From a virus (taxonomy: Duplodnaviria > Caudoviricetes): DNA of 64,000 nt. Of this stretch, positions 3,648-58,163 are shown one piece after another. Both the position numbers and the translations under genes were made by a program. Location: IMG/VR virus record IMGVR_UViG_3300044630_004720; one strand, written 5' to 3'. Position 1 is the stretch's first letter, and the number at the start of each line of letters is the position of its first letter. The notes below the pieces were generated by a model, which was not told the origin of the DNA, made no database searches, and was given only the letters and a program-made list of their open reading frames with translations.

Positions 3648-4385
3648 ATGAGTAAATTTGGGGTTTTAAAAACTAAGATATTAAAGAAACTCACAGAATC
3701 ATATTCAAATCAGAATAAAACTGAGATGAAGGAAATCCTTAAAATGATTAAAGAGAATAAGGATTTTAAAGAGTTATATCTTTTTTACGAAGAAATCGAA
3801 AACAAATATTTTGAAGATAAGGACACTGCAAAATTATATGTGGAAGAATTGAATACAATTCTAAAGAACAAATCAAAAAATATATCTGATTTTTGTAATA
3901 AATTGAATACGAAATTAAATGACATTGAGATAAACGAAAATGAAGTTTACTCAAGTCTTGATACGTTATTAGAAGAAGATAACTTATCGAATATTGATAA
4001 GAAGGTTCTCTCTAAGAAAAAATTAGTCGGTCATTTAACGACTTCTAAACAAACAAACGAAGACTTATCGTCTGATGTTGTTGTAAATGAATCTTTACTG
4101 CACGCAGTATTAGTTAATAATTTTAACGTTTTATATTCAAACAACCTAAACGAAGAACAAAAAGAAGAATTAAAAAATATTCTTTCAATGAATCAAGAAG
4201 ATTTAGATAAGAATATGTCAGAATTAAAAGAAAATGTTTTAGACCAAGTATCAAAGATTTTAACTGAAAATTCAGACCAAGACCTTTCAAAGAAGTTAAC
4301 ACAAGTTCAAGACGAGGTTAACAAAATGACATTTAGTAAAATTAATTATTTCAAACTTAAAGAATTAAAAAATGGTCTTAATTAA
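3648..4385 (+). CDS. Hypothetical helical protein, 245 aa, head module
   Basis: Long ORF co-oriented and 2 nt downstream of portal. Several [ILV]-x-E motifs. Confidence 0.8.
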   Translation: MSKFGVLKTKILKKLTESYSNQNKTEMKEILKMIKENKDFKELYLFYEEIENKYFEDKDTAKLYVEELNTILKNKSKNISDFCNKLNTKLNDIEINENEVYSSLDTLLEEDNLSNIDKKVLSKKKLVGHLTTSKQTNEDLSSDVVVNESLLHAVLVNNFNVLYSNNLNEEQKEELKNILSMNQEDLDKNMSELKENVLDQVSKILTENSDQDLSKKLTQVQDEVNKMTFSKINYFKLKELKNGLN

Positions 4386-4397
4386 GACCATTTTTTA
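4366..4397. terminator. Perfect 32-bp palindrome, bidirectional terminator shared by two convergent genes
   Basis: TAAAAAATGGTCTTAA|TTAAGACCATTTTTTA. A6/T6 flanks and both stop codons lie inside it. Confidence 0.75.
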
Positions 4398-4569
4398 TTT
4401 TCTCTGAATAGATTGCTTTGAGTTTTTCTTTACGTTTTTTAACGGAGGGTTTTACAAACTCTTCCCTTTCTCTTAATTTTTGGATTTGCTTAATTTTTTG
4501 AACTTTTTGTTTGTACGTTCTTAACGCAAACTCAATTCCTCGCTCTCCCTTTACTTCGATTATAATCAT
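4378..4569 (-). CDS. rpsU: Ribosomal protein bS21, phage-encoded, Bacteroidota-type
   Basis: 63 aa with IEFALRTYK..K, LREREEFVKPSVKKR and KAIY. Antisense within the head module, as reported for bS21 phages. Confidence 0.9.
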   Translation of the reverse strand: MIIIEVKGERGIEFALRTYKQKVQKIKQIQKLREREEFVKPSVKKRKEKLKAIYSEKIKNGLN

Positions 4570-4588
4570 TTGTTTTTAATTTATATTT

Positions 4589-4596
4589 TATAAATA
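4589..4596 (-). promoter_or_regulatory. Putative late promoter TATTTATA (bS21)
   Basis: TATAAATA on + strand, 19 nt from the bS21 ATG. Confidence 0.65.
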
Positions 4597-4599
4597 TAT

Positions 4600-4631
4600 T
4601 TTGGATTTACCAGAATTTTTCATTATATTTT
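4600..4631 (+). promoter_or_regulatory. Host-type (Bacteroidota -33/-7) promoter
   Basis: TTTG-N20-TATATTTT upstream of 4670. Confidence 0.55.
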
Positions 4632-57202: not shown

Positions 57203-57219
57203 ATTTAAAAAATTCTTGA

Positions 57220-57233
57220 TATTTATATTTATA
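57220..57233 (+). promoter_or_regulatory. Two overlapping TATTTATA motifs
   Basis: TATTTATATTTATA upstream of ATG 57245. Confidence 0.65.
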
Positions 57234-57244
57234 ACAAAAATATT

Positions 57245-57448
57245 ATGGACAATTTAAAAATAAATAATACGGCGGACCAATTCTTAAACCAAAAACAGGT
57301 TACCAAGATATCTAACGATGGAATGGAACGTGAAGAATGTGATTTAGTAACTGGAGAATGTTATGTTATCAGGTCAAAAGATGGTATAGTAGAAAGAATA
57401 AATAAAAAATACATTACCGAAGACGGTAGACAACTATTACAAGATTAA
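57245..57448 (+). CDS. Hypothetical protein, 67 aa
   Basis: EECDLVTGEC...TEDGRQLL. First gene of a late operon. Confidence 0.75.
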   Translation: MDNLKINNTADQFLNQKQVTKISNDGMEREECDLVTGECYVIRSKDGIVERINKKYITEDGRQLLQD

Positions 57449-57452
57449 TACT

Positions 57453-58163
57453 ATGTTAAAGGAAAAACTTTTAGAAGAATTAAATCGCTACAATGCGATT
57501 AATAGATACACCCAAAAATTAGTCTTAGAACAAGATATGGGTGCAGATGCGGCGGCCGCTGCAGTTCCACCGGCTGACCCATTAGCGGGTACCCCCCCAC
57601 CGGCTGACCCAATGGCGGCAGGTGCGGACCCTATGGCTGCAGGAGCAGACCCTATGGCCGCAGGAGCGGACCCGGCAGCGGGAGGAGTTCCACCGGCTGA
57701 CCCAATGGCTGCAGGAGGAGCAGAAGCACCTGCAACCGCTGAAACTGAAGAAATTGATATTACCGATTTAGTTAATATGACCAAATCAATCAAAAATGAA
57801 ATGGACAAGAACAAAGATGAGGGTAATTCTGTAATTCAGAAAATGGATAGTGTTTTTGGTAAATTAAATGATTTGGAACAAAAATTAGCTCAAATGGACT
57901 CTGTTATTTCAAAAATAGACGAGTTGGGTGGTAAAATTGAACAAGTAAAACCAAAGACCCCTCAAGAAAAATTAGAAATGCGTTCTTTAGACTCATATCC
58001 GTTTAATCAAAATCCACAAGACTTCTTTAGTCAAAAACAAAATGAAATGCAGGCTTCAGGTAAAAATGAGTATGTATTAACAAAGGATGAGGTTGAAAAC
58101 TACGGTCAAGCCCAAATAATGAAATCTTTTAATCCAGACGAAACTAATGAACCTCAGTTCTAA
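57453..58163 (+). CDS. Hypothetical protein with ADPMAAG repeats and coiled coil
   Basis: KLVLEQ leader, Pro/Ala linker, C-terminal RSLDSYPFN domain. Confidence 0.85.
   Translation: MLKEKLLEELNRYNAINRYTQKLVLEQDMGADAAAAAVPPADPLAGTPPPADPMAAGADPMAAGADPMAAGADPAAGGVPPADPMAAGGAEAPATAETEEIDITDLVNMTKSIKNEMDKNKDEGNSVIQKMDSVFGKLNDLEQKLAQMDSVISKIDELGGKIEQVKPKTPQEKLEMRSLDSYPFNQNPQDFFSQKQNEMQASGKNEYVLTKDEVENYGQAQIMKSFNPDETNEPQF
57565..57720 (+). repeat. GC-rich 21-bp-unit tandem repeat encoding ADPMAAG
   Basis: gc[ga]gaccc[at]atggc[gtc]gcagg[at] units. Confidence 0.85.

Follow-up and report, generated by a model that had tools for sequence, protein, structure and literature searches.

A scaffold-like terminal helix as a candidate prohead docking tag on unrelated late proteins of a T4-related lake phage

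We describe a short helix that recurs at the ends of otherwise unrelated proteins encoded in a 64,000-nucleotide stretch of viral DNA (IMG/VR record IMGVR_UViG_3300044630_004720; Duplodnaviria, Caudoviricetes; hereafter the window), which is the head and tail region of a large uncultured T4-related lake phage of the bS21-encoding freshwater Bacteroidetes-phage type. We propose that this 12-residue amphipathic helix, L-x-E-x-Phi-x-[RK]-Phi-K-x-L-Phi (Phi, hydrophobic), may dock proteins inside the prohead while it is being assembled. The core of the helix resembles the C-terminal end of the gp22-like scaffold, and copies are carried by the gp21-type prohead protease and by unrelated late proteins (in the window, those of 26364-26843 and 24810-25703). 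They stand at the very end of the protein, C-terminal or, in relatives, N-terminal, and in most cases beyond a flexible linker that would let the tagged proteins co-assemble with the scaffold core. A Glu-specific protease could then remove the tag after assembly, at a Phi-x-E usually placed between the helix and its cargo. A second N-terminal peptide (MK-x-Phi-x-Phi-T-E-x-Q-L-K..., about 20-25 residues, ending in Phi-x-E-Q) may mark further late proteins such as that of 9006-9932. We put the probability that a scaffold-like terminal helix docks the protease and unrelated late proteins in the prohead, with possible later removal of the tag, at roughly 55%; prohead binding, cleavage, retention in the head and injection are all inferred from sequence. 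An earlier note on this DNA had claimed that late hypothetical proteins share an N-terminal leader ending in [ILV]-x-E(Q) and a C-terminal tail, and had taken the two as a candidate code for capsid targeting and cleavage.

All the leader and tail strings quoted in that note are present in the genes to which it assigned them, the leaders in 9006-9932 (+), 11682-12134 (-), 24810-25703 (-), 26836-27630 (-), 57453-58163 (+) and the scaffold gene 5908-7140 (+), and the tails in 24810-25703, 26364-26843 (-) and the scaffold gene. The pattern [RK][IM]K.L[MIL] matches four times in the 58 window proteins (20,308 residues), each time within the last 15 residues; the binomial probability of this placement is 7e-7, and shuffled proteins yield 0.34 matches in total. 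The carriers are the scaffold, a 159-residue protein (26364-26843), a stand-alone WYL protein (24810-25703) and the protease of 5134-5820 (MNKMKSLM), the last of which had been missed before. In the protease, the tail helix SDEGMNKMKSLM, found with this pattern, lies at 5755-5790 (+) and comprises residues 208-219 of 228; [RK]MK.LM..LD.FLSK is kept in about 50 distinct sequences from relatives beside a flank that is free to vary, and one relative, G008, has RTSQLM in its place. The scaffold tail, ENPQFRRMKDLM (7090-7125, +; residues 395-406 of 410), keeps YENPQF[KR]RMKDLM in relatives. The tail LFEEIERIKNLM of the 159-residue protein (26367-26402, -) is near-invariant in 117 homologues, and L[FT]E[EQ]I.RIK.LM persists beside an indel-rich linker in syntenic orthologs. 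Similarly, the tail LSETIKRIKTLI of the WYL protein (24825-24860, -) keeps L[SA]E...[RK][FI]K.LI in 94 homologues, its [RK]-[IF]-K-x-L-I portion being near-invariant after another indel-rich linker.

In AlphaFold2 (AF2) models, both cargo proteins have a folded domain from which a disordered linker leads to a helix at the end of the chain. The 159-residue protein has a helical domain (residues 1-109), a disordered stretch (110-149; predicted local distance difference test below 60) and a tail helix (150-158); its model has no Foldseek match, and no orthologs were found in Flavobacterium phage immuto or Microcystis phage Mel-JY01, the closest cultured relatives by capsid protein (33-41% identity). 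In the WYL protein, residues 144-190 and 278-282 are disordered and are followed by a tail helix (282-296). Its N-terminal barrel has the WYL fold (Foldseek matches to PafBC, DriD, BrxR and CapW with probability 1.0 and E-values of 9e-4 to 2e-2), and its score against PF13280, 21.1 bits, is slightly below the cut-off of 21.8. Searches of the candidate proteins against Pfam, PHROGs and NCBIfam returned only this weak WYL match and tape-measure-like low-complexity matches. The candidates have no mutual similarity outside their termini, in keeping with the claim that they are otherwise unrelated: they are carriers of common terminal peptides, not a protein family. Thus, the proposed scaffold-like tail helix is indeed common to unrelated late proteins, kept in 117 and 94 homologues and borne on disordered linkers. 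Both cargo families are abundant, with 395 and 252 homologues.

The motif extends beyond the window. Our genome-wide control was G002, an IMG/VR relative of 323,865 bp (97% complete), and in this genome the tail is present on the same four families. Among partial relatives, four of four families carry it in G005, and G006, G007 and G008 give three matches each. A position-specific scoring matrix (PSSM) trained on the two cargo tails only, with the consensus given above, was run over 1,218 non-training proteins from eight genomes with a score threshold of at least 15 and preset terminal cut-offs. Eight non-training matches were obtained: six terminal, one lying 13 residues from the C-terminus and one internal. 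Five of the six terminal matches are in relatives belonging to the window's clade, at the N- or the C-terminus (an N-terminal example begins MNIQENIDRIKKLIISEG...), and the sixth is a scaffold tail. Column-permuted matrices gave a mean of 1.2 matches, 0.26 of them terminal, and none of 200 reached six terminal matches. Phage immuto scores lower, its two best matches (14.9 and 12.9) being N-terminal. The sole strong non-terminal match in the window is in the 66-residue protein of 15059-15259 (-), where an internal LIEEHEKTKQLI (residues 28-39) scores 18 with the tail matrix; its orthologs score lower. An all-versus-all comparison of G002 termini brought out two further proteins bearing both leader and tail. 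One, a late protein (150874-151101, -; locus L104), has just 75 residues, in which the portable leader at the N-terminus and the tail at the C-terminus (MNESIQKIKDNFKRFL) are joined by nothing but an acidic linker; the other (306019-307257) has 412 residues. In 80 head-module contigs of the clade, no tagged genes besides the known families were found. A full-text literature search for the motif strings returned no paper.

The strongest argument for imitation of the scaffold comes from a comparison of two clades. At its C-terminus, the immuto scaffold has SRWQKLAGIIK and that of Mel-JY01 ERMKKLAGIVK, the counterparts of the RMKDLM tail of the window scaffold, and two immuto proteins that are not scaffolds (25470-25865 and 111631-112095 of MW353176.1) start with MKKQILSEQF[KR]RMQ.LAGIITE. 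The pairing of tag and scaffold therefore recurs within each clade: in the window's clade, a scaffold with RMKDLM accompanies cargo with RIKNLM and RIKTLI, and in the immuto clade, a scaffold with R[MW]QKLAGII accompanies cargo N-termini of the form MKKQILSEEFxRMQKLAGIITE. Because the cargo tag matches the end of its own clade's scaffold in both clades, the tag likely imitates the scaffold C-terminus. A scan of IMG/VR for DNA encoding RMQKLAGI gave at least 120 matches, where chance would give on the order of ten (a rough estimate, the size of the collection being unknown). We examined 81 of these occurrences: 66 are at 1-4 residues from the stop codon, 13 are N-terminal and 2 were classed as internal, although on inspection these two also look N-terminal. 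The 66 C-terminal carriers are mostly proteins of 300-470 residues, several of them truncated at contig ends, and nearly all the contigs that could be placed by tblastn match the immuto scaffold immediately upstream of a gp23-like capsid gene. The 13 N-terminal occurrences are on small proteins. With the two immuto genes included, 17 N-terminal cargoes were compared; no pairwise similarity is left once the first 26 residues are removed, and none has an informative Pfam domain. At the level of sequence, then, the putative cargo leaders of the immuto clade copy the scaffold's C-terminal RMQKLAGII exactly, on at least 17 mutually unrelated small proteins. A tblastn search with the 28-residue immuto leader recovered self matches only, and was too insensitive.

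Leaders at the N-termini of window proteins are a more mixed group. As a code, bare [ILV]-x-E is uninformative, with 380 sites in the window that are weakly N-terminal in placement (47 against 30.6 expected). The longer [ILV].EQ falls within the first 30 residues in 6 of 18 occurrences in the window (1.4 expected, p = 0.002) and in 21 of 71 in G002 (7.9 expected, p = 2e-5), so that its enrichment near N-termini, 3-4 fold, is real but modest; at least one instance, in the dCMP deaminase-like protein at 10330, looks fortuitous. Nor do the leaders share one motif, as the earlier note supposed: they fall into at least three kinds. The first is the portable MKIxLTExQL class, represented in the window by residues 1-24 (...LKESELKQLISRIIEEQ; 9006-9077, +) of the accessory protein of 9006-9932 and found in relatives at the start of many small late proteins (MKIIITESQLK..., MAKKIKITEAQLQEIIKPIIKEQ...). 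Eight of 15 proteins with this leader have [ILV].EQ in the next 20 residues, where 0.015 would be expected for each (p = 1.6e-11); in most cases the next stretch is polar or of low complexity, and synonymous codon differences point to selection at the level of the peptide. An attempt to unify this leader with the tail helix left their registers one residue apart. The gene at 9006 occurs only in near-identical strains, and relatives carry other tagged genes inserted near the capsid gene. The interval 8906-10018, beside the capsid gene, seems to be a hot spot at which tagged accessory genes insert; in contig L053, the capsid-adjacent space has a different open reading frame with LLNEQ near its start. 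G002 has instead, at 78053-78823, a gene beginning MNIQENIDRIKKLI between the deaminase and DUF5872 genes.

The second kind is the N-terminal helix of 57453-58163 (57453-57533, +; residues 1-27), which ends in VLEQ and is followed by a Pro/Ala-rich linker. The pattern EE[LV].R[YF].AIN[RK]Y..K..[LIV]EQ[DE] is kept in three orthologs ahead of the variable linker; the helix resembles the tail motif by eye only, with a PSSM score below 9. Also by eye, its start MLKEKLLEE (57453-57480) resembles the T4 gp22 N-terminus MLKEQLIAE, and the start of the immuto scaffold (...LLKQAIAEAKTI) resembles LIAEAQKI of T4 gp22. The third kind comprises the short Phi-x-x-Phi-Phi-x-E-Q/K starts of 24810, 11682, 26836 and the scaffold, which are conserved in the clade. 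In the WYL protein leader, MSEILNIFEELLLEQ (25659-25703, -), LL.EQD is near-invariant and residues 2-10 vary. The leader of 11682-12134, MKNLENVIKKHISKLVEQ (12081-12134, -), clusters with other N-termini, and its G002 ortholog begins MKNISELIKKHLNNIVKEQ; the C-terminal end of the same protein is a Lys/Trp-rich module (...YPSAYANGWAAKNYKKKGGGW) that matches phrog_27331. The leader of 26836-27630, MNQFIKQVIEEK (27595-27630, -), belongs to what is apparently the first gene of a late run, with its own late motif, and its QVIEEKF is invariant in six orthologs. Finally, the scaffold N-terminus MSQKSILEQ (5908-5934, +) keeps SI[LV]E[QK] within the clade, and its Glu appears weak as a cleavage site, since by eye it looks replaced in immuto (LLKQ).

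Apart from that of 9006, the [ILV]-x-E-Q leaders of the window might simply be the ordinary first helices of their own folds, only the C-terminal tail being a tag, and this we consider an unlikely but serious account. The 3-4 fold enrichment, which includes the likely chance case in the deaminase-like protein, would then reflect a composition that favours helices; the five leaders do not align to a single motif, the leader of 24810 is predicted to run on into the WYL helix of residues 2-28, and the scaffold ILEQ looks to the eye like the LLKQ of immuto. Against this, LL.EQD, QVIEEKF and [IV][LIV]EQ[DE] are kept in orthologs amid varying neighbours, and the portable MKIxLTExQL leader ends in Phi-x-E-Q much more often than expected by chance.

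Tagged genes are enriched behind a late promoter-like motif. This motif, TATTTAT(A), is strongly concentrated ahead of genes: 15 of the 58 genes have it, and the entire window contains 17 copies. The portal, protease, scaffold, sheath and tube genes each follow a copy. The motif is common to the window's clade and immuto, typically 11-45 nucleotides upstream of starts. TATTTAT stands upstream of 5134, 5908, 9006, 26836, 57245 and 12149. Three of these are apparent heads of runs: 26836 for the co-directional 26836>26364>25703>24810>24219, 57245 for 57453, and 12149 for 11682. The candidates thus lie in units with the late motif, as had been claimed, in the sense that TATTTAT precedes each candidate gene or the head of its co-directional run. 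The run 27630>24219 keeps its synteny in relatives of only 40-75% identity. In G002, 10 of 18 tagged genes (terminal helix or portable leader) have their own TATTTAT, compared with 61 of 391 others (odds ratio 6.8, Fisher p = 2e-4), and two more tagged genes sit in a co-directional run with a late promoter at its head; the association with late rather than early proteins, on which the earlier note had staked its proposal, is therefore borne out in this genome by the enrichment behind late promoters. One immuto tagged gene, in a non-structural region, bears its own late motif, TATTTATA.

As had been supposed, the protease (5134-5820, +; late motif 23 nucleotides upstream) is a homologue of Peptidase_S77, the T4 gp21 type; its match to PF03420 scores 79 bits (E = 4.2e-22), the cut-off being 27. 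In the major capsid protein, the candidate maturation site L57-I-N-E60/A61, which would end a 60-residue propeptide, lies at 7340-7351 (+), LINEAA being residues 57-62. The proposal of this site agrees with an alignment of YLINE60/A61 with FLTE65/A66 of T4 gp23, where the cut at LTE65/A66 is a known maturation site (PMC9958956), and with ISE/AN and VSE/AN in relatives. Judging from this alignment, the protease almost certainly cuts the capsid protein at LINE60/A61. A further candidate site in the portal, P566-L-S-E569/S570 (3502-3513, +), is suggestive only; PLSE is invariant in five relatives and lies between a hypervariable Gly/Ala/Pro linker and conserved C-terminal helices. On the cargoes, Phi-x-E occurs on the cargo side both before C-terminal tails (LFE/E, LSE/T, LNE/S) and after N-terminal helices (LAGIITE/S in most immuto-clade cargoes, LIISE/G in G002). 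The predicted cuts fall after LFE150 in the 159-residue protein and after LSE284 and, in the leader, E14 in the WYL protein. This position in both orientations would suit a removable tag, and cleavage of the leaders is plausible from their sequence.

Several observations weigh against the proposed prohead docking and release. The scaffold and protease tails are without the cargo-type L-x-E and have low PSSM scores (about 10), and gp21 and gp22 of T4 and of cyanophage Syn19 are without such a motif. The proteases of immuto and Mel-JY01 have no scaffold tail and no cargo copies were seen in Mel-JY01, so the tag is not universal even in relatives. With regard to release, the N-terminal immuto leaders, too, have L-x-E (as L-S-E) ahead of the helix, and the triplet may be structural, a helix cap, rather than a cut site; the leaders have Gln after the Glu, where the capsid site has Ala and the candidate portal site Ser; and the leader of 24810 is, as noted, modelled as one helix (2-28) with the first helix of the WYL domain. 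Published data on the clade are transcripts only (late transcription is reported, with no virion proteomics; PMC9723584), and a title-level literature search returned no virion proteomics of immuto. A broader version of the proposal can be put forward only tentatively: that the scaffold-derived 12-residue helix, at either protein end, could be a general prohead address label for the protease and for fast-changing accessory proteins, with release at an adjacent Glu site, and that its use extends across T4-like Bacteroidetes phages of aquatic habitats, a very large group.

A terminal peptide, late expression and a flexible tether do not in themselves specify a partner, and no cargo domain has an assigned function. 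The helix might therefore dock to some other partner common to late proteins, such as an assembly hub or a chaperone of the phage or its host, without packaging. We think this improbable, as both of the proteins that have to go into the prohead, scaffold and protease, bear the motif, and the immuto-clade tag reproduces the final residues of the scaffold exactly. We give still less credence to a membrane role, in which a basic amphipathic helix would bind the inner membrane and hold the scaffold, protease and accessory proteins where T4-type proheads initiate. The tails are short, basic, amphipathic and at the very end of the protein, as are the membrane-targeting helices of the MinD and FtsA type. 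T4 proheads do begin on the membrane (PMC9958956). Such helices, however, need amphipathicity and not a fixed sequence, whereas specific residues are kept here across unrelated proteins, and the motif changes along with the scaffold between clades, to exact identity over eight residues. Selection on the RNA instead of the peptide is ruled out by synonymous codon variation and by the occurrence of the motif at both protein ends; selection appears to act on the tag peptide, since its codons vary synonymously.

The remaining features place these genes in a T4-like head module. The window has a G+C content of about 32% and begins with the terminase (2-1750) and the portal (1807-3645, Portal_T4), followed by the bS21 gene (4378-4569), which is antisense and lies between portal and protease; a reverse-strand bS21 in this place is the layout of the freshwater Bacteroidetes phages of Chen et al. 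2022 (PMC9723584). The acidic scaffold (5908-7140, +; late motif), a positional counterpart of gp22, lies between the protease and the gp23-type major capsid protein (7172-8905, +; PF07068, E = 6e-76), and tail genes are located further along. The probable gp22-like identity of the scaffold rests on its position, its acidity and its homology to the immuto gene upstream of the immuto capsid gene; no homology to T4 gp22 was detectable (BLASTP E = 1.7), and Pfam, PHROG and NCBIfam gave no match. A search of phage genomes for DNA near-identical to the window found none, and 458 IMG/VR contigs carry a homologue of the protease. In the late run, the gene between the two tail-bearing ones (25703-26362, -) encodes four repeats of about 50 residues (...SDGDEKGKGENNG.IGS..DIN.R...); its orthologs have 219-376 residues and give several offset BLAST matches, so the number of repeats seems variable. 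The gene at 10771-11676 (-) matches DUF5872. In Mel-JY01 (PP395634.1), two neighbouring genes at 60276-61105 begin MIKLKSLL[QK]EIISDRV.

Mimicry of the scaffold C-terminus is a concrete hypothesis that can be tested in immuto (vB_FspM_immuto), a phage with a cultured host, Flavobacterium sp. LMO8, and the analysis provides a list of candidate packaged proteins, a stand-alone WYL domain among them, in phages abundant in lakes. If true, it would supply a missing rule for the localisation of core proteins in T4-type heads and a practical tag for loading foreign proteins into such capsids.

A capsid-targeting sequence (CTS) on the T4 internal proteins IPI-III and Alt was reportedly described by Mullaney and Black in 1996. 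It is an N-terminal peptide of about 10 residues that the gp21 prohead protease removes; gp21 and Alt undergo C-terminal processing as well, and reviews consider that the gp21 propeptides may target gp21 to the prohead (PMC9026906, PMC9958956). Reports of the CTS concern IPII and IPIII, IPI having a similar propeptide, and do not extend to other core proteins; the localisation of T4 core proteins is described as mysterious and not understood, the known targeting sequence covering internal proteins only (PMC9958956, PMC9026906). The window phage has the same setting at the level of sequence, that is, a T4-like head module, an S77 protease, a gp23-type capsid protein and a homologous capsid cut site, and likewise has a short terminal peptide common to late proteins that are unrelated and change fast, with a site of the L/I-x-E type beside it. 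Unlike the CTS, MKTYQEFIAE, to which the window tags have no similarity in a by-eye comparison that included the termini of T4 head genes (making them analogues, not homologues), the best-supported tag of the window's clade is C-terminal and able to sit at either end, is similar or identical to the C-terminal end of the scaffold and occurs on the protease as well. In T4, packaging has been shown, whereas for the window phage it is inferred.

In phages phiKZ, 201phi2-1 and SPN3US, head and ejection propeptides are cut after S/A-x-E by gp21-related proteases (PMC10052503, PMC5694885), and in SPN3US a C-terminal propeptide is removed from the protease itself (PMC10052503). Like these, the window phage is large, its Glu-specific protease belongs to their superfamily, there are several candidate substrates, and the protease has a C-terminal extension. 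Unlike the window tags, their propeptides are mostly of 111-254 residues and are not reported as one common short motif, and the P3 residue, Ala or Ser in that group, appears to be Leu, Ile or Val here.

Other lineages offer parallels of form. The HK97 maturation protease has a C-terminal capsid-targeting tail, and encapsulins use cargo-loading peptides that are portable between unrelated cargoes; both kinds of peptide bring a protein into the interior of a shell with the HK97 fold. As in these systems, the tags here are short C-terminal peptides on flexible linkers, separate from the folded cargo domain in the AF2 models, though sequences and lineages differ; to our knowledge, neither system has a separate scaffold protein with the same peptide, and encapsulins have no proteolytic release. 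The P22 scaffolding protein contacts the coat protein through a basic C-terminal helix-turn-helix, and it, too, has a basic, helical functional element at its extreme C-terminus. We know of no report of this P22 motif on other proteins and of no protease in P22, whose ejection proteins enter by other routes. As proposed here, the arrangement is a variant of T4-style capsid targeting that is new in its sequence, its placement at either protein end, its likeness to the scaffold and its presence on the protease.

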